The notes under the pieces: model-generated
What the model saw: only the letters and a program-made list of their open reading frames with translations
Database searches by the model: none
What the model was told of the DNA's origin: nothing
In this document: one piece after another, positions 2,440 to 64,000 of the stretch
How the letters are laid out: each line of letters begins with the position of its first letter
Position numbering within the stretch: position 1 is the stretch's first letter
DNA from: Kiritimatiellia bacterium
GTDB taxonomy: Bacteria > Verrucomicrobiota > Kiritimatiellia > RFP12 > UBA1067
Assembly (NCBI GenBank): GCA_018384485.1
Contig: JAHBAE010000064.1
Span: 2,015-66,014 of the forward strand
Direction: 5' to 3'
Length of the DNA: 64,000 nucleotides
Program-made: the position numbers and the translations under genes

Positions 2440-3843
2440 ATGGCTTGTTCATGCGGGAAGAAAGGTTGCAACTGCGCCGACAATGATTTTCATGCGCCTA
2501 TGGCTGCGCTTTGGCAGGTCTATGATGGCATAACCTCAACGTCTTCGGCTGATATCGTTTCCATCGCCTGGGAGCGTGAAGAGGGCAAAGTGTTCAGGTA
2601 TGATCTTCCTATTCCTAAGCGTCTCTCTCCTGAGGCCGCCGCGTTCGTTTCGCATGTTGTCGACCGCATAACGAAGTTTGTCCTTTGGGCGGCAGGCGGC
2701 TGGAAGCTTTACCTCTCTGGTCCTGAAGCAGTTGTAGGGCCTGTAGCAAAGGCTTACACAAAGAAGGGCTCTCGCAAGTTCGATTACGATTTCTTCACCT
2801 CGATCTACGGCCACCCGGTTGAAGTTGCAATCGTGCCCGCCAAGAAGATGCCTGAGTTTTCGGAAAAGCTCCGTCAGGTGAAGACTGTTGCAGACGGCAA
2901 CCGTATCGGTTTCGATCTTGGCGCGTCAGATTTCAAGATTTCTGCGCTCAAGAAAGGGAAAGTCGTTTTCTCGAAGGAGTTTCCTTGGGATCCTCGCAAT
3001 AATGCAGACCCTGAGTATCACTATTCGATGCTTACCGTAGGCCTTAAGGAAGCGGCTGCCTCTTTGCCCAAGGTCGATGCGATCGGCGGCTCCACGGCCG
3101 GCGTGCTTGTCGGTCAGAAAATGGGCCTTGCTTCGCTCTTCCGCGCCGTCAAGGAAAAGAACCCCTCTAAATTCCCTGATGCGCAGAATATGTTCTACCG
3201 CATTGAAAAGGATTGGGGCGTTCCCTTCGCCGTCTACAACGATGGCGACGTTACTGCTCTTGCCGGCATGATTTCCATGGGCAAGAACGGCATTCTCGGC
3301 GTTGCGATGGGCTCCTCCGAAGCAGTCGGTTATGTTGATCCGAAGCGCCGCATGACAGGGCGCATCTGCGAGCTTGCGTTCGCTCCTGTAGACTTCAACC
3401 CCAACGCCCCCAAGGACGAGTGGTCTGGCGATTACGGCGTCGGCGCGATGGCATTCTCCCAGCAGGCCGTCAACTGGCTTGCGGAGAAGTACGGCTTTAA
3501 GTTCCCCAAGTCAATGAAGCTTCCTGAGCGTCTTAAAGTCGTTCAGGCGGCTATGGAGAAGGGCGACTCCAAGGCTCTTAAGGTCTATCTTGAGATCGGC
3601 CGCTTCCTCGCGCACGCGATGCCTTGGTACAACGAGTTCTTCGATTACGAGAACATGATGATTCTCGGCCGCGTCACGTCTGGTCTTGGCGGTGAAATCA
3701 TCCTTGAAACGGCCAAGCGTATTCTTGGCGATGTCTATCCTGAATGGGCGGAGAAGATCGATCTGTTTATGCCTGATGAAAAGGCTCGCAGGCTCGGTCA
3801 GTCCGTCGCTGCTGCGCAGATTCCTGTAATCAAGGGCAAGTAA
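2440..3843 (+). CDS. ROK/ASKHA-type sugar kinase-like protein with an unrecognised ~150-aa Cys-rich N-terminal extension
   Basis: The C-terminal ~320 aa carry ASKHA phosphate/adenosine motifs (RIGFDLGASDFK, AIGGSTAG, YNDGDVTALAG, GVAMGSSEAVG). The N-terminus is MACSCGKKGCNCADND. Confidence 0.6.
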   Translation: MACSCGKKGCNCADNDFHAPMAALWQVYDGITSTSSADIVSIAWEREEGKVFRYDLPIPKRLSPEAAAFVSHVVDRITKFVLWAAGGWKLYLSGPEAVVGPVAKAYTKKGSRKFDYDFFTSIYGHPVEVAIVPAKKMPEFSEKLRQVKTVADGNRIGFDLGASDFKISALKKGKVVFSKEFPWDPRNNADPEYHYSMLTVGLKEAAASLPKVDAIGGSTAGVLVGQKMGLASLFRAVKEKNPSKFPDAQNMFYRIEKDWGVPFAVYNDGDVTALAGMISMGKNGILGVAMGSSEAVGYVDPKRRMTGRICELAFAPVDFNPNAPKDEWSGDYGVGAMAFSQQAVNWLAEKYGFKFPKSMKLPERLKVVQAAMEKGDSKALKVYLEIGRFLAHAMPWYNEFFDYENMMILGRVTSGLGGEIILETAKRILGDVYPEWAEKIDLFMPDEKARRLGQSVAAAQIPVIKGK

Positions 3844-12776: not shown

Positions 12777-15128
12777 ATGATTGTGAACTCATCTTTGTCT
12801 CATATTTGGGGCTGCACCTTGATGGCGCTTGCATTCTTTGCTTCGCTTGACATTTCAGCTGCGGAAAATTCGACTCCGATGTTGCGCTCCGCCGTCGAGG
12901 CTCTTAGAGATGGAGAAACTCTTTCCTTGCCGACGGCTACTTATCGCCTCTCTGTCAAAGGCGCGCGTGAAATAGAACTTGCCCCTTCGAATAACCGCAC
13001 AGGCCTTAAATCTGTGGCATTCCCGATTTTCGGGAAGAAGAATGTGACTATCGATGGCAATGGTTCTACGTTCGTCTGCGAGTTTGGAGTATCTCCTTTT
13101 GCTTCACTGAGCAGCCAAGGCGTCACACTGAAGAATTTTACGATTACGATGCCTTATAAGCCGGTCGTCGCTTTTAAAGTGATGGAGAAGAACGATAAAT
13201 TCTTCCGCATAAAGCTTGAGAAGGGGTGCTGCCAGGTGCGCATTAAAGGCGATGAAATTATAATTGATGCTGGCGAGCGGATTTGCTCTTCAAAGGAGGG
13301 GCGGCTTTCGATGCATCCCGAGAAGCGTCAATTGACGCACATTATTATGACGCCTTCATCCCCGGGAAATAAAGACGAGTTCCCATCTCCCTTCTGTTCA
13401 GTTCTTCCAAAGGCGGTCGGCGAAGACGAAATCATTTTCACTTACGTTCCCGATTCGCACAAGAAATGCTGCGCTCTTCCGTATGAAGTGAATGAGCGCG
13501 TGAACATTCTTCTCGACCAGACCCGTTCCACACTCGCGTTCTTTTTTCAGGATTCAACAGACATCTGCCTTGAGAATGTGACGTTGCGCCGCTTCCCTGG
13601 CATGGGGCTCGTTGCGCAGCGCTGCGAGAATATTACCGTAAGAGGCCTTACCGCCGCCCCGTGCAAAAACGAGGATGTTTCGCTTACCGCCGACATCATG
13701 CAGTTTATCAACTGCGGAAAATCTGTGCGCGTGGAACAATGCTTCTGCGCCAATTCGGCCGACGATATCATAAACGTCCATGGCAATTACATGAGTGTGG
13801 TGTCCGTTTCAGGAAACAAGGCAGTTCTCTCTTTGCATCACGAATCCCATCGCGGTTTCTTTCCGTACAGAGCAGGCGATAAGGTCGAGTTTTCCGATTT
13901 CTACTCGCATGAAATCCTCGGCTCGGCGAAGGTGGTTTCTCTTCAGGCAAATCCCACGAACGCCTATTCCTGCACTGTGGTTTTTGATTCTTCTCTTCCA
14001 TCCTTCAAGAAGGGTACTTTAGTTGAGAATGTGACGCTCTCCCCCGATGTCACACTCAAGGGGAATAAATTTTTCAATTATTCGCATATCAGAATCTCAG
14101 GGCGCGGAAAGATTCTCGTCGAGAACAACAGGTTTGAGCATTGCCAGGGGCTTATCTTTATGGATCTGGCGGGTTACTGGATGGAGTCCGGGCGCATTTC
14201 CGATGTTACGATACGGAACAACGACTTTGTCAACTGCAATGCCAGAGGAGGCAACTCTTTCGTGACTATCGGCATAGAAAACCGCCGCCACGATGACGCG
14301 AATGTTCCGCTTATCCACGGGCGCGTCCTTTTTGAAGGCAATCGCTATTCTGGCATCAAAGCCAATAAGTATGTCGCGTGGGGAGTGCGCGAGGTGATTG
14401 ATCGCGATAAGAAGATGAAAAGGGTTCTCATTCTCGGAGATTCCATATCCGACAAATGTCATGTCGGGTGCACGAAGAACTATTGGGGCTTTCTTGCGGA
14501 GAACCTCTTTTTTACGCCTTACGTATATGCGGTGAACGGTGCGCAGATGTTGCGCCTTCCGGGGCAGCTCAAGGCGTTCGCAAAGGATCACAAGTTCGCG
14601 CCGGATGTCGTGTTAGCCTTTGCAGGTACAAATGACTATAATGCAAACATTCCGCTCGGTGAGTGGTACAGCGTGAAGGACGCTACCGTCAACAGAAACG
14701 GGAGGAAAGCGAATGTGAAGAAGCGTTCTTTCAATTTTGACGAGTCTACGTTCCGCGGCAGAATAAATATTCTCATGAAGCTTATCAAAGAAACGTATCC
14801 CAATGCTAAGGTGTTGGTAGTAACTCCATTGCACCGCGGCTACGCATGGTTCGGAGACGCAAATGTTCAGCCCGATGAATCGTACTCCAACGAGAGGGGG
14901 CTCTTTATCGATGATTACGCTTCAGTCATCAGGGAGGCTGGCGGAGTGTGGTCGGTGAAGGTGGTCGACCTTTTTGCAGACAGTGGCATCCTTCCCAACC
15001 TTCGTTCTCAAGATCCGTTTATACACAATGTCAATTCCGACAGGTTGCATCCGTCTGCCAAGGGGCATAAGATTGTAGCTGATGCAGTCGAGCTGTCGGT
15101 CGGCAAATGGCTTGAGCCTGGCGAATGA
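12777..15128 (+). CDS. Secreted two-domain protein: right-handed beta-helix glycosidase-like N-domain + SGNH/GDSL hydrolase C-domain
   Basis: Signal-like N-terminus. The long region shows beta-helix turn periodicity (NVTIDGNGSTF, VTLKNFTI, ICLENVTLRRF, ITVRGLTA, VTIRNNDFVNC). The C-terminal SGNH blocks are VLILGDSISD, AGTNDYN and DRLHPS. Confidence 0.7.
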   Translation: MIVNSSLSHIWGCTLMALAFFASLDISAAENSTPMLRSAVEALRDGETLSLPTATYRLSVKGAREIELAPSNNRTGLKSVAFPIFGKKNVTIDGNGSTFVCEFGVSPFASLSSQGVTLKNFTITMPYKPVVAFKVMEKNDKFFRIKLEKGCCQVRIKGDEIIIDAGERICSSKEGRLSMHPEKRQLTHIIMTPSSPGNKDEFPSPFCSVLPKAVGEDEIIFTYVPDSHKKCCALPYEVNERVNILLDQTRSTLAFFFQDSTDICLENVTLRRFPGMGLVAQRCENITVRGLTAAPCKNEDVSLTADIMQFINCGKSVRVEQCFCANSADDIINVHGNYMSVVSVSGNKAVLSLHHESHRGFFPYRAGDKVEFSDFYSHEILGSAKVVSLQANPTNAYSCTVVFDSSLPSFKKGTLVENVTLSPDVTLKGNKFFNYSHIRISGRGKILVENNRFEHCQGLIFMDLAGYWMESGRISDVTIRNNDFVNCNARGGNSFVTIGIENRRHDDANVPLIHGRVLFEGNRYSGIKANKYVAWGVREVIDRDKKMKRVLILGDSISDKCHVGCTKNYWGFLAENLFFTPYVYAVNGAQMLRLPGQLKAFAKDHKFAPDVVLAFAGTNDYNANIPLGEWYSVKDATVNRNGRKANVKKRSFNFDESTFRGRINILMKLIKETYPNAKVLVVTPLHRGYAWFGDANVQPDESYSNERGLFIDDYASVIREAGGVWSVKVVDLFADSGILPNLRSQDPFIHNVNSDRLHPSAKGHKIVADAVELSVGKWLEPGE

Positions 15129-15173: not shown

Positions 15174-17288
15174 ATGAAAACGATAATGAAAAAATCCATC
15201 CTTGCGGTGGCGATGGCCGCTCTCGCGGGCGCCTGTCAAATGAAAAACCAAGAGCCTGAGAAGCGTCCGGTAAGAACGATAACGCTTAATCTCAACGCCA
15301 AGCCCATACGCGATATCTCGCAGTCGTCGAGTTCGCCGATTCTCGGCTATGCTGGCGCCGGCGTTGGTGGCGGAGAAGATTCGAAATGGCTTTTTGAAAC
15401 GCACCGCAAAGAGGCGGCCGCCGTGTTCCGCAAATGCGGTGCGAGGTTTGTTCGTCAGTGGGACGCCGTCCGCCTGTGGCAACGCGGCGCGGGATCGTAT
15501 TTTTTTCTCGACAGTAAAACTGGCAAGGCAAAGAACAGGTTTCCTCACATGACAACTGACATGTATAATGCATTTTCCTTCTACAAGGAGTATGGCATTA
15601 AAGTCGTGTTGACGCTTGAGAATTACGGATCGATCACAAACTTTGAAACGCTCGCCTCAACACCTGACATCAATTATGTTAAGAAAGACATTTGTGATTA
15701 CGTCAAATGGATTGTAGACAATGGCTTTAAAGAGGTTGTTGCAGGTTTCGAACTCGGCAATGAGCCGTATTGGGCAGGTAATGAGATGTATACCAATCCG
15801 AACTGCAGCCCCGAGCGCTATGCCGAGCGCTGGTGCGCAATCATTCCTGAAATTAAGAAAATATTCCCTGAGTGCAAAATCGGTATGCCGATTGCAGAAT
15901 ATTTCAGCGCCGATCCAGATATCGCAGCTGTCCGCGCGAGAACTGAACAGGCCGAAAAGCTTGAAGCCAAGGGTTATTTCGATGCAAACAGCATGAATCA
16001 GTGGTCTGCGAGATTTATCAAGGCGATGGAGAGTCAGCTTCACAATGTATCTCATGTTATTTATCATACCTACGGCGCGGACGCCCCATTTTCCGCAACG
16101 TATTGGGGGATTCGCCGCTATCGCCTCTTTACAGATGCATACCCCCAGCTTAAAGGTAAGAAATTCTGGATAACGGAATGGCGCGATCGCTCCGACGAGG
16201 AAGTTCCCTCACACATGCGCTTCCGCGAGACGCTCAACAAGTCCGCATTCATGCTTATGATGATTGCACAGCCTGAAATCGACGGAATGAATCTTCATGA
16301 GTTCCGCTGCCAAACGGGTTCTCTCGCTTGGTCGTTCTGGAACGATAAGGACAAGACGGGCAACTGGTCGGTGCAGTGGATGAACGGCGGGCCTGATCGC
16401 CCCGATTACGATTCTGTCGGCGAGAGCCGCGTTCATATCGGGAGTATGGGGCCTGCTATGCAGCTTATGGTTGAATCGCTCCGCAGGAATCCGCTTGTTA
16501 TGGATTTCGGAAGCGACAACTACGGCGCATATTCCGAGGGATGCTCGAACGCCGTCTGGGCGTGCTCTGATTACTACGCAAGCGTCATAGACTATCGCCA
16601 GGGGATTCGCAAAGGGCTTCCGCCTGAAAAGATGCCCAAGATCAAGGGCGATTGCCAGTATCTTGTCACGTGCGATAAGTCAAAAAACATCTGGGCGCTG
16701 CATTACGTAAACATGAATCCCGAGGATGTTGAGTTTGATATCGTTTTCAACGGTCACTGCGACCCTGGCGCCCCTGATATTCGCGTCACCTGCTGTGATG
16801 AGCGTTTTGCAGATGCGCATGAAATCGCTGGCTTTGGGCGTCTTTCCCGCGAATACGCTTATCAGCCTTACGCAGTTGAAGCCGGCAAGTATCGCATCAA
16901 GATACCTGGCAATTCAGTTACGACCGTCACCATTCCCGTGCGCCGCGGCTGGATGTATAATTCTGCTCACAGGCTTCTTGAAGCGGCCGCCATCCATGAC
17001 GAGCCGTTCCCTCAGCGCCCTAAATGCGGAGCCGAGCAGAAGGCGGAGGATTTCCGCTATTACGGGGCGCTTGATCGCTATGCGAAACTCAAGGTTGTCA
17101 AGAACGGAGGACTCGTCTGCAATGTGTCTGTCGGGAATCTCACCGACGGGGCTGCTATTAAAGTGTTCAAGGGTGAAGATGCAAAGGAAAATAAGCAGGC
17201 CACTCTTGTCACCGATATTGAGAACCCTGAAATTTTAGAGAATCTCAGGAAGGATGCAGGCAAGCTTTGCGGAGTAGAGCTTCGCTGA
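15174..17288 (+). CDS. Lipoprotein, putative clan GH-A glycoside hydrolase
   Basis: Lipobox AALAGAC. FELGNEPYW (acid/base NEP) and KFWITEW (nucleophile) form the usual (beta/alpha)8 clan-A motif pair. I cannot assign a family by eye. Confidence 0.6.
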   Translation: MKTIMKKSILAVAMAALAGACQMKNQEPEKRPVRTITLNLNAKPIRDISQSSSSPILGYAGAGVGGGEDSKWLFETHRKEAAAVFRKCGARFVRQWDAVRLWQRGAGSYFFLDSKTGKAKNRFPHMTTDMYNAFSFYKEYGIKVVLTLENYGSITNFETLASTPDINYVKKDICDYVKWIVDNGFKEVVAGFELGNEPYWAGNEMYTNPNCSPERYAERWCAIIPEIKKIFPECKIGMPIAEYFSADPDIAAVRARTEQAEKLEAKGYFDANSMNQWSARFIKAMESQLHNVSHVIYHTYGADAPFSATYWGIRRYRLFTDAYPQLKGKKFWITEWRDRSDEEVPSHMRFRETLNKSAFMLMMIAQPEIDGMNLHEFRCQTGSLAWSFWNDKDKTGNWSVQWMNGGPDRPDYDSVGESRVHIGSMGPAMQLMVESLRRNPLVMDFGSDNYGAYSEGCSNAVWACSDYYASVIDYRQGIRKGLPPEKMPKIKGDCQYLVTCDKSKNIWALHYVNMNPEDVEFDIVFNGHCDPGAPDIRVTCCDERFADAHEIAGFGRLSREYAYQPYAVEAGKYRIKIPGNSVTTVTIPVRRGWMYNSAHRLLEAAAIHDEPFPQRPKCGAEQKAEDFRYYGALDRYAKLKVVKNGGLVCNVSVGNLTDGAAIKVFKGEDAKENKQATLVTDIENPEILENLRKDAGKLCGVELR

Positions 17289-59223: not shown

Positions 59224-59664
59224 ATGGAACTGAGCAATCTTACCAATACACCTGGAGCGCGTGAGCGCCGTAAGCGTGTCGGCCGCGGCTGCGGCTCCGG
59301 CATGGGCAAGACTTCCTGCAAGGGCCAGAAGGGTCAGCAGAGCCGTAAGGGTCATAAGCACAAACTCGTGTTCGAAGGCGGTCAGATGCCTCTCGTTCGC
59401 CGTTTGCCGAAGCGTGGCTTTAACAATGCCGCCTTCAATGCCAAGGCTCTCGGCGTGAATCTCTCCTCGCTCGAGGCGAAGTTCGAGAATGGCGCAGAGA
59501 TTACCGTCTCCGCTCTTGCAAAGGCTGGCTTCAGCGACAACAAGCGTCCGAAAATCAAAATCCTCGGCGTCGGTGAAGTTACCAAGAAGTTCACGATCAA
59601 GGGCATTCCTTGCTCGGCCACCGCGAAGCAGAAAATCGAGGCGGCCGGCGGTTCTGTCGCTTGA
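59224..59664 (+). CDS. rplO: 50S ribosomal protein L15
   Basis: MELSNL...RKRVGRGCGSGMGKTSCKGQKGQ; start ATG 59224 (GGAAGGAG upstream). Confidence 0.94.
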   Translation: MELSNLTNTPGARERRKRVGRGCGSGMGKTSCKGQKGQQSRKGHKHKLVFEGGQMPLVRRLPKRGFNNAAFNAKALGVNLSSLEAKFENGAEITVSALAKAGFSDNKRPKIKILGVGEVTKKFTIKGIPCSATAKQKIEAAGGSVA

Positions 59665-59688
59665 GATTTATCTTCAGCATGAAAAGGT

Positions 59689-59723
59689 ATGCCGCATCCG
59701 AAAAGATGCGGCATTCTTTTTTT
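59689..59723 (+). terminator. Strong Rho-independent terminator ending the ribosomal protein cluster
   Basis: ATGCCGCATC-cgaaaa-GATGCGGCAT (perfect 10-bp stem), then TC and TTTTTTT. Confidence 0.85.
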
Positions 59724-59888
59724 GTTCGCTGGAGTTTACCCTTTTTTTTGAACGTGAAAGCGCATTTTATCCCGATAAATAAAAGTGAAGTGTATCTTGC
59801 GAAGTGTATTTTATGGTTTTACATTTATGAAAGGCTATCCGTAGCGTCATCTCCTGTCCTTACGATCCTTGACCGTGAAGAGCGGTTT

Positions 59889-59897
59889 TGATATATT
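59889..59897 (+). promoter_or_regulatory. Candidate extended -10 promoter TGATATATT for the glycine-rich protein gene
   Basis: It lies in an AT-rich 380-nt spacer. The 147-nt leader contains the hairpin GGGTGA...TCACCC. Confidence 0.4.
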
Positions 59898-60044
59898 ACT
59901 TCAGCATATGAGGAAAGGGTTCGGGCAATTGGACTTTGAATCGACCGTTGGCGTGGCCAATGGCCTGATGGGTGATAACTTTGGATTCACCCCCTCGCTG
60001 ATTTCACTCACATACCACAATATAACTCAAGAAAGGTCAATACC

Positions 60045-63000
60045 ATGAGCGCATGGCGTAAGGTCTGTTGTTGTCTCACAATGGTCGCGGGGCTTTCGTT
60101 TGGGGCGTCGGCGGCGCTGACGATCGGTACGACGGACGATCCGAAGGCGACAGAGGTTGACCTCGGCAACGACGTCTACCTGCTTGAGTTCAAGAACGGC
60201 AACGCGGAGCCGTGGACGTTCACGCCGATGGCTCCGGTGCGCGTCGAGAAGATGCTGGTCGTGGGCGGCGGCGGCTCGGGCGGCTGCGATTGCGGCGCGG
60301 GTGGCGGCGGCGGCGCGGTGCTGTACACGAACTACACCGAACTTGCCGAGGCGGACCGTCCGATGCTCAGTGAACCCGTGTCCATCCTCGTCGGCGCGGG
60401 CGGGATTGCGGCGACTAGCACGTCCAGAAGCGGCAAGCTTGGCGGAATGTCCGAGATCACGGTCGGCGGCGTGACCTTCTCCGCTTACGGCGGCGGTGGC
60501 GGCGGACATTGGAGCGGGCCCGGTTCGCTGGCCGCCGAAGAGGGAAAGATCGCGTCCGGCGGCGGCAAGGGCAACGGTGGTTTCGCCAATTTCCAGACGG
60601 ACGGCAAGGGTTATAATTCGCTTTACGGACACAAGGGCGGGACTAATTTCGATGCCTTGAATGCGGGTGGCGGCGGCGGCGCGGGCGGCGACGGAGAGGA
60701 CGGGGCGGATGCGCTTGGCGGCAAGGGCGGCATTGGTTTTTCGTGCGACATTACGGGGGAGCCGCATCTCTATGGTTCGGGTGGTTGCGCGGCGCGCGAG
60801 AATCCGAAGGAGCCCTACGAAGGCGGCGGCAGCCGTGCGGCGGGTTACAGCATGAACGGCACGGACGGGCTTGGCGGCGGCGGCTCGGGCAGTTACTCGA
60901 GCACGAGCAGCAGTGGTGCGGGTGGCTGCGGTACGGTCATTCTCGTCGTCAAGTACATCGGTGACGGCAAGATCCATGCGGAGATCGATAAGGTGTTTTC
61001 GGCATATGACGGGGCCTCGCATACCAATACGCTGACGGTTTACTCGCGCGGCGTGACAGTGAAATGGGCTCTTGCGGAGGACGGGCCGTTCGACCTTGAT
61101 GAGCAGCCGGGCTTCACCGAGATCGGTATCCATTCCTGCTGGTGCCGGCTGACGGCATCGGACTGCGAACCGGTGGTCCTGAAGGGCATGGTGTACATCC
61201 GCGGCGATGCGGAGCCCTTGAGCGTTGGCGTCGCGGACGATCCGGGAGTGGTGCAGTATTCCTTTGGAGATGGCCATTATGTGCTCGGATTCACCAATTT
61301 TGAAATGGCGGCGATTTCCGTTTCGCCTCTCTCCTGCCTGCGTATTGAGCGGATGCTGGTCGTGGGGGGCGGCGGTTCGGGCGGCAACAACTGCGGTGGC
61401 GGCGGCGGTGGTGGCGGCGTGATCTGGCAGGACTACCGCTCGTTGCCCGAGGCGGAGCGTCCGACGATCACCAATGAATTTGGCGTGACAATCGGGCGCG
61501 GCGGCAGTTCCGCGCTGAAGCAGGGGGTCGGGCAGAACGGCAATCCGACGACGCTTACCGTCGAAGGCGTGTCGACCTCGGCCTGGGGCGGTGGAGGCGG
61601 CGGCTCGTTCACGACGGTTCCCGCGGTTGCCGCGGTCACGGGTCAGATTGGCTCGGGCGGTGGCGCGAGCTTTAAGGGCGGCGGCAGTATGGGCATTGAC
61701 GGCATAGGCTACAATTCGAAGCAAGGTAAGATGGGTGGCGCGATGAACGGTGCCCAGGGTGCGGGCGGTGGTGGCGCGGGATCTGTCGGCGGCGCTGCTT
61801 CGGCGACGGCTGCGGGACGTGGCGGCGATGGCTTTGCATGCAAAATCACGGGCGAAACGCATCTTTACGGTTCAGGCGGCGGTGGCGGCAACGGAACGAT
61901 TCCTGATCCGCCGGAAGGCGGCGGGCGCGGCGGAAACGGTTCGATCGCCGTGACCGGCGGCACGGACGGTCTGGGTGGCGGTGGCGGTGGCTCGAAGGGC
62001 GGAACGGGCGACTGGCCGTCCGGTTCGGGCGGTGCGGGCTGCGTCTACCTGCATGTCACCGCGATTGAGAATCCTTATGTCAGTGCGGTCCTGTCCGACT
62101 GCTGGGGCTCCACGGCCGGCGAGGCGCATTCAAACGAACTGATCGTCGCGACGGCGGGGGTGACGACGAAGTGGTCTCTGACGGGCGCGGAGGGTCCGTT
62201 CGACCTCGACGTGCAGCCGAGCTTTGCGACGCCGGGTATTTACACCAACTGGTGCGAGCTGACGGCCGCCGGCAAGGAGACGCTGGTCCTACGGGGCATC
62301 GTCGGACTTCGCGCGGCGGACGGCGACTATTATGTCGCGGCGGACGGCGATGACAAGACCGGGCTTGGTACGGCGGACCGTCCGTTCGCGACGCCGGAAA
62401 AGGCGCTGGCGAATGTCCGCGACGGTTATGGGGTCCGAATCGGCGCGGGCAAGTACAAGACGTTCGGTCTTGTCCTTGACCGCGCCGTTGCGCTGGTCGG
62501 TGACGAGTCGGATCCGTCGCGCGTCGTGCTAGATGCGGGGCAGCTTGGTCGGACGCTGAAGATTGCCGACGAAGCGGTGCGCGTCAGCGGCGTGACGATA
62601 AAGGGCGGATTCGCGTCCAGCGGCGCAAACGTCTATATGACGGCCGGCGTCGTCTCGAACTGCGTGCTGACTGGCGGCAACGGATCCGACAATGGCGGCA
62701 ACGCCTATGTCGGCGGCGGACAGATCGTCGATTCGCAGATCTTGAACGGCTCGGCGCGTCGCGGCGGCGGTGCGGCGGTGTCTGGCCGCGGCCGGATTTT
62801 GCGCTGTCTCTTCAAGGGCAACAGCGTCACCGATTCCGGCGGCGGCGTGTCAATAAACGGCAACGGCGTGGTGGAGAACTCCCTCTTCACTGGCAACAGC
62901 GGAAGGTACGGCAGCGGTGTGCAGTTGGATTCGATGGACGCCTGGCTGGTCAACTGCACGGTTGCCGGCAATGCGGCAGGATATGGTAGCGCTTCCCAAG

Positions 63001-63356
63001 TCTGGAACGAGACTAATGGCGGCAATGCGCTCAACTGCGTTGTGCTTGGCGGCTATTACATCAAGAAGGGTACGATCTCGTACTGTGCGCTTGATCTGAC
63101 GCCCAGGGAGGAGACCACGGGCACGAAGTTCTACGATCACAACGTTACCGTCGATTCGAGCATCTTCGAGGACACGACGGCCTATCGTCCGAAGAAGGGC
63201 ACTGATCTTCAGGGCAAGGGGTCCAACCTGGGCTATTCCGCGCATGCGGTCTCAACAACCGACTACGAGGGCAGTCCGCGTCGGCAGGGAGCTCGCATCG
63301 ACATCGGCCACATCGAGCTGCCGCCGAAGGACGGCACGCTACTGTTCGTCAGGTAA
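60045..63356 (+). CDS. Secreted 1103-aa protein: 2 tandem poly-glycine modules + C-terminal right-handed parallel beta-helix
   Basis: Sec signal MSAWRKVCCCLTMVAGLSFGASA|A and SD-like GAAAGG upstream. The frame stays open through GGC-rich sequence. The C-terminus has DYYVAADGDD..RPFATPEKAL plus PbH1-like turns (VSNCVLTGGNG, IVDSQILNGSA, ILRCLFKGNS, VENSLFTGNSG, LVNCTVAGNAA). Confidence 0.8.
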   Translation: MSAWRKVCCCLTMVAGLSFGASAALTIGTTDDPKATEVDLGNDVYLLEFKNGNAEPWTFTPMAPVRVEKMLVVGGGGSGGCDCGAGGGGGAVLYTNYTELAEADRPMLSEPVSILVGAGGIAATSTSRSGKLGGMSEITVGGVTFSAYGGGGGGHWSGPGSLAAEEGKIASGGGKGNGGFANFQTDGKGYNSLYGHKGGTNFDALNAGGGGGAGGDGEDGADALGGKGGIGFSCDITGEPHLYGSGGCAARENPKEPYEGGGSRAAGYSMNGTDGLGGGGSGSYSSTSSSGAGGCGTVILVVKYIGDGKIHAEIDKVFSAYDGASHTNTLTVYSRGVTVKWALAEDGPFDLDEQPGFTEIGIHSCWCRLTASDCEPVVLKGMVYIRGDAEPLSVGVADDPGVVQYSFGDGHYVLGFTNFEMAAISVSPLSCLRIERMLVVGGGGSGGNNCGGGGGGGGVIWQDYRSLPEAERPTITNEFGVTIGRGGSSALKQGVGQNGNPTTLTVEGVSTSAWGGGGGGSFTTVPAVAAVTGQIGSGGGASFKGGGSMGIDGIGYNSKQGKMGGAMNGAQGAGGGGAGSVGGAASATAAGRGGDGFACKITGETHLYGSGGGGGNGTIPDPPEGGGRGGNGSIAVTGGTDGLGGGGGGSKGGTGDWPSGSGGAGCVYLHVTAIENPYVSAVLSDCWGSTAGEAHSNELIVATAGVTTKWSLTGAEGPFDLDVQPSFATPGIYTNWCELTAAGKETLVLRGIVGLRAADGDYYVAADGDDKTGLGTADRPFATPEKALANVRDGYGVRIGAGKYKTFGLVLDRAVALVGDESDPSRVVLDAGQLGRTLKIADEAVRVSGVTIKGGFASSGANVYMTAGVVSNCVLTGGNGSDNGGNAYVGGGQIVDSQILNGSARRGGGAAVSGRGRILRCLFKGNSVTDSGGGVSINGNGVVENSLFTGNSGRYGSGVQLDSMDAWLVNCTVAGNAAGYGSASQVWNETNGGNALNCVVLGGYYIKKGTISYCALDLTPREETTGTKFYDHNVTVDSSIFEDTTAYRPKKGTDLQGKGSNLGYSAHAVSTTDYEGSPRRQGARIDIGHIELPPKDGTLLFVR
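60117..62312 (+). repeat. Intragenic tandem duplication: two ~365-codon modules (60117-61208 and 61218-62312)
   Basis: The same ordered motifs recur ~367 aa apart: MLVVGGGGSGG (aa 70/437), HLYGSGG (241/606), GTDGLGGGG (272/639) and GPFDLD (347/717). Confidence 0.85.
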
Positions 63357-63385
63357 TGTGGCGGGCGGGCAACAGCCCGGCATTT

Positions 63386-63394
63386 TGGTATAAT
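63386..63394 (+). promoter_or_regulatory. Extended -10 promoter TGGTATAAT (leaderless GH78-like mRNA)
   Basis: The -10 ends 7 nt before ATG 63402; there is no SD. Confidence 0.5.
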
Positions 63395-63401
63395 ATCGGC
63401 T

Positions 63402-64000
63402 ATGAGATACCAGACAATTCTGCTGGCGGCGGCCGTCGGGCTCCTCGCCTTTGAAACTGGCGCCACGGCCAGATGGATTTCGGATCGCGCCGACGGGGGA
63501 GTTGACGTGGCGCGGCCGATGGTCGGGGTCGGCGTCGCGGCGACGCTGCCGAAAGACGTCATCGCCGTGCGCAAGCGCTTCGTGCTGAAGGACGCGCCGG
63601 CCTCCGCGCACGCGAAGGTCACGGGTCTCGGCTTCTACCGTCTGGTCGTCAACGGCGTGGATGTCGATCCGACGCGGATGATGATGCCCGGGTGGACGAA
63701 TCCGGGGTGGAGGGTCCTTTACGACGAATACGACGTGGCGCGGTGGCTGCGGGAGGGGACGAACGAGGTACGCATCCTCCTCGCGCCCGGGTATGCGGAT
63801 GACATGAATCCGTGGACGTGGCGGTGGATGCGCCCCAAGCGCGCGTGGATGGAGATGGAGGTCGCGGACGGCGACGCGCCGCGACGGATCGTGACGGACG
63901 GTACATGGGAGTTCACAGACGACCTGCCGTTCGTCTCGGCTTCGATCTACCACGGCGAGACGTACGATGCGACGCGCGGCGGAAACGCGCGGTGGCGTCC
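63402..64000 (+). CDS. Alpha-L-rhamnosidase (GH78)-like protein, N-terminal part (runs off the window; not in the ORF track)
   Basis: My own translation gives MRYQTILLAAAVGLLAFETGATA (signal), then RKRFVLKDAPASAHAKVTGLGFYRLVVNGVDVDPTRMMMPGWTNPGWRVLYDEYDVARWLREGTNEVRILLAPGY. This is the pattern of the bacterial rhamnosidase N-terminal domain. Confidence 0.68.
   Translation, partial: MRYQTILLAAAVGLLAFETGATARWISDRADGGVDVARPMVGVGVAATLPKDVIAVRKRFVLKDAPASAHAKVTGLGFYRLVVNGVDVDPTRMMMPGWTNPGWRVLYDEYDVARWLREGTNEVRILLAPGYADDMNPWTWRWMRPKRAWMEMEVADGDAPRRIVTDGTWEFTDDLPFVSASIYHGETYDATRGGNARWR

Follow-up and report, generated by a model that had tools for sequence, protein, structure and literature searches.

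In a 64,000-nucleotide stretch (the window) of contig JAHBAE010000064.1 from a Kiritimatiellia bacterium (assembly GCA_018384485.1), we examined the gene at positions 60045 to 63356 of the forward strand. It encodes a protein of 1103 amino acids, 22% of which are glycine, and adds one more member to a very large family that is already known but has no characterized function; it does not amount to a new kind of system. We are confident of its architecture: a signal peptide, two tandem units that each comprise a beta-strand lead-in, a Gly_rich_2 domain and an Ig-like domain, then a beta-helix, a cap and a seven-residue tail. By analogy with glycine-rich receptor-binding proteins, we favor, at somewhat better than even odds, the reading that this is a Sec-exported, probably surface-displayed modular binding protein that would carry variable loops on a rigid glycine scaffold. 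That it is specifically a binding protein on the surface we would put at evens. An earlier note, made from the DNA sequence of the window, had recognized a secreted open reading frame (ORF) with duplicated glycine-rich modules fused to a beta-helix. The ORF and its Sec-type leader held up on inspection, and the structural core of that interpretation is right; it was wrong or unproven on the Pfam accession, on closeness to ALK and on an enzymatic beta-helix. The parts of the gene are as follows.

60045..63356, + strand: coding sequence of the 1103-amino-acid protein, stop codon included; ATG start; intact in the independent assembly L001.
60045..60113, + strand: Sec-type signal peptide, amino acids 1-23, read by eye; predicted cleavage after A-S-A.
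60117..61208, + strand: module 1, amino acids 25-388, with a beta-strand lead-in, a Gly_rich_2 core of about 12 to 13 glycine-rich motifs and an Ig-like unit (BLASTP against module 2, AlphaFold2, Foldseek).
60213..60947, + strand: best PF21722 (Gly_rich_2) stretch, amino acids 57-301, within module 1 (E 5.5e-27, 95.7 bits).
60405..60440, + strand: variable loop, amino acids 121-132, between two glycine-rich motifs; hotspot of strain-level amino acid change.
60933..61208, + strand: Ig-like beta-sandwich spacer of module 1, amino acids ~297-388; seven strands in the AlphaFold2 model.
61218..62312, + strand: module 2, amino acids 392-756, with its parts ordered as in module 1; holds the second Pfam and PHROG stretch.
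62313..63230, + strand: right-handed parallel beta-helix, amino acids 757-1062, with a DUF1565-like N-terminal cap, YYVAADGDD..GT..RPFATPEKAL (AlphaFold2, Foldseek).
63231..63317, + strand: choice-of-anchor-Q-like C-terminal cap, amino acids 1063-1091; motif D..G..R......D.G..E conserved.
63333..63353, + strand: C-terminal tag G-T-L-L-F-V-R-COOH, amino acids 1097-1103; candidate sorting or anchoring signal.

The two modules were compared by BLASTP with composition-based statistics. Amino acids 25 to 388 aligned end to end with amino acids 392 to 756 at 41% identity and 57% positives (E 2e-41), and a hidden Markov model (HMM) built from both copies recovered them at E values of 1e-204 and 5e-197. 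This confirmed the earlier proposal that these segments are two copies of one module, and all of the motifs listed for them were present in both copies and in the stated order, as judged from the sequence and the alignment. Module 1 was 53 to 62% identical to module 1 of the orthologues P0002 to P0004 and 44 to 46% identical to any module 2; because it is closer to the orthologues' module 1 than to any module 2, the duplication is older than the split between the orthologues. The module HMM showed that the lead-in and glycine-rich part was repeated two to four times in nearly all of 120 retrieved homologues, and that the Ig-like tail was restricted to the closest homologues (P0001 to P0005 and P0017). 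The Ig-like piece that the earlier note had pointed out corresponds to the seven-stranded unit at amino acids ~297 to 388, which in Foldseek matched PKD, Rib and cadherin-type domains over 85 to 100 columns (E 0.03 to 0.1, probability ~1.0), as well as SGBP-type Ig-like domains.

Pfam domain analysis of the whole protein returned one family at an E value of 1 or below, PF21722 (Gly_rich_2). It matched in two stretches, the better of which scored 95.7 bits against a gathering cutoff of 24.3 bits and spanned positions 6 to 224 of the 226-position profile. In the phage protein collection PHROG, phrog_2295, to which no function is assigned, matched amino acids 69 to 300 (E 1.8e-33, two stretches), together with a weak match to a tail-protein PHROG. 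PF12810, the ALK/LTK family that the earlier note had guessed, gave no match at E≤1 in the HMM search. A phmmer search of the PDB with the whole protein returned nothing, and a profile of 48 module sequences picked out no chain of ALK, LTK or gp38 there at E≤10. The sole PDB matches to that profile were the (GGGGS)n linkers of single-chain variable fragments, which we rejected as spurious low-complexity hits.

The AlphaFold2 model of module 1, computed from the 48-sequence alignment, was of high confidence (mean predicted local distance difference test [pLDDT] score, 91.3; predicted template modeling score [pTM], 0.85), and the glycine runs were ordered, which disposes of the concern that the modules might be disordered. 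Beta strands flank and interleave long runs that have pLDDT values above 90 and to which DSSP assigns no secondary structure ("-"). The module thus has multiple glycine-rich segments of at least 5 to 6 residues that are ordered and are neither alpha nor beta, as in the polyglycine-II (PGII) class. Confident glycine runs that are modeled as neither helix nor strand are the expected DSSP signature of PGII or polyproline-II (PPII) helices. The geometry that defines the class, with backbone angles of about -75 and +145 and hexagonal or layered packing at ~5 Å through backbone hydrogen bonds between helices, is accordingly presumed for the modules; in keeping with this, their three best PDB matches and ALK are bundles of this class that have been solved experimentally.

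The best PDB matches of the module in Foldseek were two chains of the mycobacteriophage Bxb1 tail tip (9d93; E 4.5e-6 and 1.2e-5), followed by the cyanophage Pam3 fiber protein gp24 (7ypx; E 8.5e-5, 285 columns, target-normalized TM-score [TMt] 0.49). The fourth was ALK residues 673 to 986 (7mzy), a weak match (E 8e-3, probability 0.47, TM-score ~0.2). Among the predicted viral structures of BFVD there were 191 matches at E≤1e-3, the best with an E value of 1.8e-16 and a query-normalized TM-score (TMq) of ~0.55. Almost all bear the name "Glycine-rich domain-containing protein"; their sources are tailed phages, cyanophages, prasinoviruses and one haloarchaeal phage. The earlier note had likened the modules to both phage adhesins and ALK/LTK. 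The first likeness is well supported (BFVD, E 1e-16; PHROG 2295, E 2e-33), whereas the second exists at the level of the fold and is weak (E 8e-3, probability 0.47).

Comparison with the known proteins of this kind brings out what is shared and what is not. Members of PF21722/PHROG 2295, which occur in tailed phages, prasinoviruses and many bacteria, have their glycine-rich motifs in the same order as the window modules, both of which score well beyond the Pfam cutoff, and AlphaFold2 models of the viral members superpose on the module (TMq ~0.55, E values down to 1.8e-16). In the window, by contrast, the domain is part of a cellular, Sec-exported protein, is duplicated with an Ig-like unit after each copy, and is fused to a beta-helix and a tag. 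No functional study of any PF21722 member was found in the literature. In Pam3 gp24, 12 glycine-rich motifs build a lattice of four layers, whose stem is conserved and whose distal tips vary, and which resembles Salmonella phage S16 gp38 and ALK (PMC9608196). This protein (7YPX; a TNF-like plus a glycine-rich domain) is like the window module, with its ~12 to 13 runs, in combining conserved runs with variable loops. It differs in being a trimeric virion fiber that has a helical shaft at its N terminus and a chaperone of its own, and the two share 18% sequence identity; the window protein instead starts with a signal peptide, lacks such a shaft and has no gene for a chaperone in its vicinity. 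Bxb1 gp33 and gp29, like the Pam3 fiber, contain PPII bundles that resemble gp38 (PMC13243192), and the bundles of S16 gp38 and Bxb1 serve as platforms for variable receptor-recognition loops (PMC13243192; 10.1101/2023.11.25.568672). Bxb1 gp33/gp29 (9D93) gave the top PDB matches of the module (E 4.5e-6), yet at low TM-scores (0.25 to 0.41), and S16 gp38 (6F45) was not among the 50 PDB matches listed. The S16 and Bxb1 proteins are phage tail components, whereas the window protein is cellular and exported. ALK and LTK (PF12810; 7MZY, 7N00 and 7NX1) are alike in architecture, with a glycine-run lattice inserted in a beta-sandwich that serves as an extracellular ligand-binding domain, but have no sequence-level relation to the window module and a weak link at the level of the fold.

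Conservation across the 48 aligned modules follows the predicted scaffold. The glycine runs (~12 to 13 motifs in each module) and their immediate flanks were 90 to 100% conserved, and the segments between the runs were poorly conserved and carried the indels. A constant glycine platform with variable loops is the arrangement described for gp38 and gp24. We also compared the gene with its copy in an independent Logan assembly (L001), which is 98.7% identical at the nucleotide level over window positions 59361 to 64000, keeps the gene order and has an intact ORF. The codons of the two copies differ by 21 synonymous and 19 nonsynonymous changes, which over 851 synonymous and 2458 nonsynonymous sites gives a ratio of nonsynonymous to synonymous divergence (dN/dS) of ~0.31. 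Since the ORF is intact in L001 and dN/dS is ~0.31, it is not an assembly artifact and is under purifying selection; a frameshift, raised earlier as a possible objection, is ruled out by the same observations. Five of the 19 nonsynonymous differences fell in the 12-residue loop at amino acids 121 to 132, against ~0.2 expected from the counts if changes were spread evenly, and this loop has low conservation in the family and one indel. Three more of the 19 lie at amino acids 673 to 676 (62061 to 62072), between two glycine-rich motifs of module 2. This clustering suggests strain-level diversification of the loops.

The C-terminal domain (amino acids 757 to 1103, 347 residues) was modeled from a 22-sequence alignment with a pLDDT of 92.8 and a pTM of 0.91 and consists of regular short strands. 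Foldseek returned 26 beta-helix matches in the PDB at E≤1e-3, led by Rhombotarget A (9cdv; E 3e-8) and the family PL9 polysaccharide lyase Pel9A (1ru4; E 3e-7, TMq 0.63). Further neighbors were GH136 lacto-N-biosidases, chondroitinase B, pectin methylesterases (CE8), PL6 lyases and the PL9 rhamnogalacturonan lyase 5olq. The model and its neighbors confirm the beta-helix fold. The earlier note had called this domain a DUF1565/PbH1 helix. As to fold that was correct, but no Pfam family matched the C-terminal domain of the window copy at E≤0.01 (neither Beta_helix PF13229 nor DUF1565, nor a lyase or esterase), and such matches were found in relatives: of the 22 aligned, 5 matched DUF1565 and 3 Beta_helix. 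Among the NCBIfam models, the window copy gave a weak match to the NosD N-terminal domain. The family profile matched the sequence of 5olq at an E value of 0.0023, confined to the N-terminal cap and first coils (chain residues 3 to 207).

The earlier note had further described the beta-helix as carbohydrate-active, and for this we obtained no supporting evidence. In the 22-sequence alignment, polar conservation within the helix body takes the form of asparagine ladders (N872, N945, N951, N970 and N997). No acidic or basic column in the body reached 90% group conservation, the best being E944 (82% D/E) and R836 (68%). None of the catalytic constellations of PL9, PL6 or CE8 enzymes (a Ca-binding Asp cluster with a Lys/Arg base for the lyases, or Asp/Asp/Gln/Arg for CE8) was conserved, as judged by conservation as a proxy for superposition. 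The sole strongly conserved charged cluster (D1073, R1079, D1086 and E1091) lies in the C-terminal cap. Because the helix body conserves asparagine ladders and the charged cluster is confined to the cap, we see no evidence for a catalytic site, and carbohydrate activity is a possibility and not a finding. Rhombotarget A (Acinetobacter; 9CDV) and Pel9A (1RU4) are the nearest structures of this domain (TMq 0.59 to 0.63). The Ca-binding Asp cluster and catalytic Lys of Pel9A have no conserved counterpart in the window family. No function of Rhombotarget A is described in the titles and abstracts found. Rhombotarget A (RbtA) is likewise a secreted protein with a beta-helix, and its C terminus bears the sorting signal GlyGly-CTERM; the window protein differs in that its tail is seven residues long and is not a transmembrane-helix sorting domain.

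The ends of the protein bear on its location. The N terminus, MSAWRKVCCCLTMVAGLSFGASA followed by A, has basic residues at positions 5 and 6, a hydrophobic core at 7 to 19 and an A-S-A site at 21 to 23, all read by eye. The leader has a Kyte-Doolittle hydrophobicity of 1.9 over 19 residues (window of residues 7 to 25), and similar leaders occur across the homologues. At the other end, a tail of about five mostly hydrophobic residues followed by R or K was found in 81 of the 120 homologues. In 73 of these 81, glycine stands at position -7, usually preceded by Pro or Ser. The tag is present whatever domain precedes it, including in a protein encoded upstream of P0004 that has Beta_helix as its sole Pfam match. 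It also occurs in 32 of 130 further family representatives and at L004:3034-3054, L007:13976-13996, L007:16100-16120 and L008:4462-4482, and it was missing from the neighboring secreted carbohydrate-active enzymes (CAZymes) that we examined.

The tag could be matched to none of the described sorting signals (among them PEP-CTERM, GlyGly-CTERM, LPXTG and the C-terminal domain of the type IX secretion system), and its seven residues are too short for a transmembrane helix. The NCBIfam CTERM sorting-signal models gave no match to the protein at E≤1, and nothing relevant to a C-terminal sorting signal in Kiritimatiellae was found in the literature. It directly follows the choice-of-anchor-Q-like cap. 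NF041518 (choice-of-anchor Q) matched 13 of the 22 relatives, with a best E value of 5.5e-11; the window copy scored 17.2 bits against a cutoff of 25 bits (E 0.004, amino acids 1063 to 1091). The NCBI name "choice-of-anchor" denotes domains that precede differing sorting signals. If this is the reason for the name, the placement of the tag after such a domain would fit a sorting signal. The tag may be a lineage-specific sorting or anchoring signal.

A mechanism for the window protein can be proposed by analogy with phage S16 gp38, Pam3 gp24, Bxb1 gp33 and ALK. The dozen or so glycine runs of each module would pack as PGII helices into a rigid, backbone-hydrogen-bonded lattice, and variation would be concentrated in the non-glycine loops between the runs, which would contact the ligand. 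Having diverged, the two modules could then present two different binding faces or specificities. The Ig-like units and the beta-helix would act as spacers, or a stalk, that project the modules from the cell; alternatively, the helix may offer a noncatalytic glycan-binding surface. Targeting to the cell envelope, or retention there, would be the task of the C-terminal tag. Candidate ligands are a gut glycan or particle surface or a surface protein of another cell.

The gene is chromosomal and belongs to an uncultured gut-type Kiritimatiellae bacterium. The features that surround it are listed below.

59224-59664, + strand: rplO (ribosomal protein L15), which closes a ribosomal-protein operon (S3 to L15).
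59689..59714, + strand: strong intrinsic terminator after rplO, with a 10-bp stem that has 6 GC pairs, followed by TCTTTTTTTG.
59869..59897, + strand: sigma-70-like promoter candidate, TTGACC-17-TATATT with an extended -10 TG; 10 of 12 consensus positions match (consensus match only).
63402..64000, + strand: start of a GH78 alpha-L-rhamnosidase gene, downstream context (PF08531, E 1.6e-23); the complete gene, of 769 amino acids, is in L001.

The terminator sets the gene apart from the upstream ribosomal-protein operon. The 380-bp spacer between rplO and the gene is AT-rich and carries the sigma-70-like site and a Shine-Dalgarno-like run, AAGAAAGG, 8 nucleotides 5' of the ATG; sigma-70-like sites are more numerous in the region than chance predicts (5 seen against 0.9 expected). 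secY did not follow rplO, and no secY match was present among the 20 large window ORFs scanned. Downstream, the GH78 start codon lies 45 bp past the stop codon. G+C content rises from ~0.55 upstream to 0.65 inside the gene. G+C at third codon positions (GC3) is 0.76, inside the 0.51 to 0.84 range of the neighboring genes, so the jump mainly reflects Gly and Ala codons and not foreign DNA, and horizontal transfer, which we considered on account of the jump, is unsupported. An antisense ORF of 611 amino acids (60027..61862, - strand) was also rejected as a gene, being an Arg/Ala/Thr-rich, low-complexity shadow of the Gly and Ala codons.

Elsewhere the window encodes housekeeping functions (a type IIA topoisomerase B subunit, uvrC, pgk, tyrS and the ribosomal operon) together with GH97, GH2, a glycogen-debranching enzyme, a beta-helix-GDSL esterase, sugar transporters and dehydrogenases. 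The topoisomerase subunit is 84 to 86% identical to proteins named from Kiritimatiellae metagenome-assembled genomes (MAGs). No phage-type Pfam match was found among the 20 large window ORFs scanned. A second beta-helix protein is encoded at 12777-15128 (+); it has 783 amino acids, with a Beta_helix region and a GDSL esterase domain, and lacks both a Gly_rich_2 domain and the C-terminal tag. The ORFs at 15174-17288 (+; 704 amino acids) and 2440-3843 (+; 467 amino acids) had no Pfam match at E≤1e-3.

The orthologue and paralogue contexts compared (P0002, P0004 and P0046) revealed no conserved gene neighborhood or operon: P0004 lies between Beta_helix proteins, P0002 beside a DUF3990 gene, and P0046 between GH2 and GH28 genes. 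The earlier view that this is a single protein and not a multigene system therefore stands. The P0046 locus is on a 180-kb contig (L007:8229-17626), where genes for GH2, P0046 (a Gly_rich_2 protein of 1332 amino acids), a second Gly_rich_2 protein (693 amino acids) and GH28 share one strand; both Gly_rich_2 proteins end in the C-terminal tag. The GH78 gene beside the window gene and the GH2 and GH28 genes beside P0046 hint at a loose association with pectin-type CAZymes. This adjacency is weak evidence, because the genome region is CAZyme-dense throughout.

To place the protein in its family, the module profile was searched against representatives of 50%-identity clusters. It matched 27,153 representatives at E≤1e-3, a weakest tier that glycine-rich composition may inflate, 14,539 at E≤1e-10 and 1,376 at E≤1e-30. 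Members reach 7,335 amino acids and up to 21 matched stretches, so that the window protein, which the earlier note had called giant, is an ordinary-sized, typical member of a very large family and is not singular. At 98% identity its own cluster has 43 member sequences. The expectation that bacterial members would be essentially uncharacterized proved accurate. We found no paper that mentions PF21722 or Gly_rich_2, the sequence clusters of the family are unnamed or at most called "hypothetical protein," and the examples given in a review preprint on PPII-bundle domains are limited to antifreeze proteins, Obg, two carboxylases, phage gp38 and ALK/LTK (10.1101/2023.11.25.568672). It follows that the kind of domain has been catalogued and that its cellular members are unstudied.

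Relatives came from a yak-caecum Kiritimatiellae MAG and from Candidatus Colisoma, a genus-level lineage of Kiritimatiellota. Scans of contigs with single-protein patterns confirmed no relative. A scan with L[VL]VGGGG[ASG]GG confirmed one locus among the matches listed, in the yak-caecum MAG. With so few loci confirmed among those matches, pattern scans say little about taxonomic spread. Many of the top-scoring family members (P0139, P0146, P0181, P0183, P0186, P0191, P0199 and others) are very long and Asn/Ile-rich and lack signal peptides. They start with MDIIQG.IE.GNAG.SG, end in TSN-type repeats, and look giant-virus or eukaryote associated and unlike bacterial surface proteins.

Ten distinct ORFs combine an N-terminal extracytoplasmic function (ECF) sigma domain (regions 2 and/or 4) with Gly_rich_2 modules (P0043, P0071, P0091, P0096, P0104, P0114, P0208, P0235, P0239 and P0249; locus L008:1642-4485). 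The tag, or a sequence very similar to it, forms the C terminus of nine of them. In the six that we inspected (P0043, P0071, P0091, P0096, P0104 and P0114) a transmembrane helix lies between the sigma and Gly_rich_2 parts, as do a linker of 40 to 60 amino acids and an internal Met with a leader-like stretch. Such ORFs could encode membrane-tethered sigma factors whose ectodomain is a glycine lattice, or else each could consist of two neighboring genes that happen to be in frame. If they are truly membrane-tethered sigma factors, they would support a ligand-sensing role of the module.

Several points weigh against the reading of the window protein as a surface-displayed binding protein. Binding is proposed purely by analogy, and the gene neighborhood is not conserved. 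The PGII assignment depends on confident "coil" and on Foldseek neighbors with modest TM-scores (0.25 to 0.49 in the PDB), the signal peptide is a judgement by eye, and the tag, for which no machinery is known, may be no signal but a strand of the structure. Finally, GH78 is encoded beside the gene and GH2 and GH28 beside a relative, and the beta-helix resembles lyases and esterases, for which reasons an enzymatic role has to be weighed. On that explanation pectin-type glycans would be attacked by the beta-helix, as a polysaccharide lyase, esterase or hydrolase, with the glycine-rich modules as accessories that target the substrate. We consider this unlikely, although it is the main rival. The structural neighbors of the beta-helix include Pel9A (E 3e-7, TMq 0.63), 5olq, GH136, PL6 and CE8, the family profile has a weak sequence match to 5olq (E 0.0023), a rhamnosidase is the next gene, and P0046 sits between GH2 and GH28. 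The 5olq match, however, is limited to the N-terminal cap and first coils, and the helix body has asparagine ladders in place of a conserved Asp cluster or Lys/Arg base. The window copy matches no Pfam lyase, esterase or Beta_helix model, the top structural neighbor is Rhombotarget A, to which the titles and abstracts found ascribe no function, and the CAZyme neighbors are not kept among orthologues and lie in a CAZyme-dense region.

Should the lattice provide rigidity and not specific recognition, the protein could be a structural envelope or coat component, S-layer-like or matrix. The large paralogous families with 2 to 21 modules, the envelope attachment that the tag suggests and the description of PGII bundles as rigid scaffolds (10.1101/2023.11.25.568672) are in keeping with this. 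We nonetheless regard it as improbable: variability focused on loops is expected of recognition surfaces and not of a lattice-forming coat, the module is also fused to ECF sigma domains (ten ORFs, with a transmembrane helix in six), and there is no sign of high expression or self-assembly. A prophage, tailocin or other phage-derived receptor-binding protein is largely refuted and retains a very small probability. Its basis is the match to PHROG 2295 (E 2e-33) with the weak tail-protein PHROG, and the fact that phage tail proteins and viral models are its closest relatives in structure. The Sec signal peptide contradicts it, as do the position of the gene between a ribosomal-protein operon and GH78 in a window whose 20 large scanned ORFs lack phage-type Pfam matches, the presence of the same locus in an independent sample, and dozens of cellular paralogues with leaders and C-terminal tags. 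The idea that a low-complexity, disordered or misassembled ORF gives no folded product, which the 22% glycine and the G+C content of 0.65 against ~0.55 upstream might suggest, is refuted and has next to no chance of being correct, given pLDDT values of 91 to 93 for both modeled parts, position-specific conservation across 48 modules, an independent assembly with purifying selection, and a GC3 of 0.76 within the neighbors' 0.51 to 0.84.

We favor the surface-displayed binding protein, and its significance lies in the lattice. The PGII lattice is a rare third way of building a folded protein, and studies of it have been confined to a small number of antifreeze proteins and phage tail tips, to Obg, to two carboxylases and to ALK/LTK. 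Exported proteins of gut Kiritimatiellae would use the same module, arrayed in tandem and equipped with loops that vary. With more than 14,000 clusters, the cellular members therefore constitute a very large and experimentally untouched class of presumed recognition proteins. A wider joint proposal, which we put forward tentatively and consider doubtful, is that the tag is a new Kiritimatiellae sorting or anchoring signal on a large repertoire of Gly_rich_2 and beta-helix surface proteins and that the lattice is a general extracellular recognition module of bacteria. If that were true, the lattice would serve adhesion here and as a sensing ectodomain in membrane-tethered ECF sigma factors, and it would be what the ALK/LTK receptor ectodomain is in animals, and probably a source from which phages draw receptor-binding domains. 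If the binding model itself is true, these proteins would provide a rigid scaffold of natural origin that can be programmed through its loops, would connect the receptor-binding domains of phages with a pool of cellular genes, and would help to explain how glycan-degrading bacteria of the Planctomycetes-Verrucomicrobia-Chlamydiae group attach to particles, mucus and other cells.

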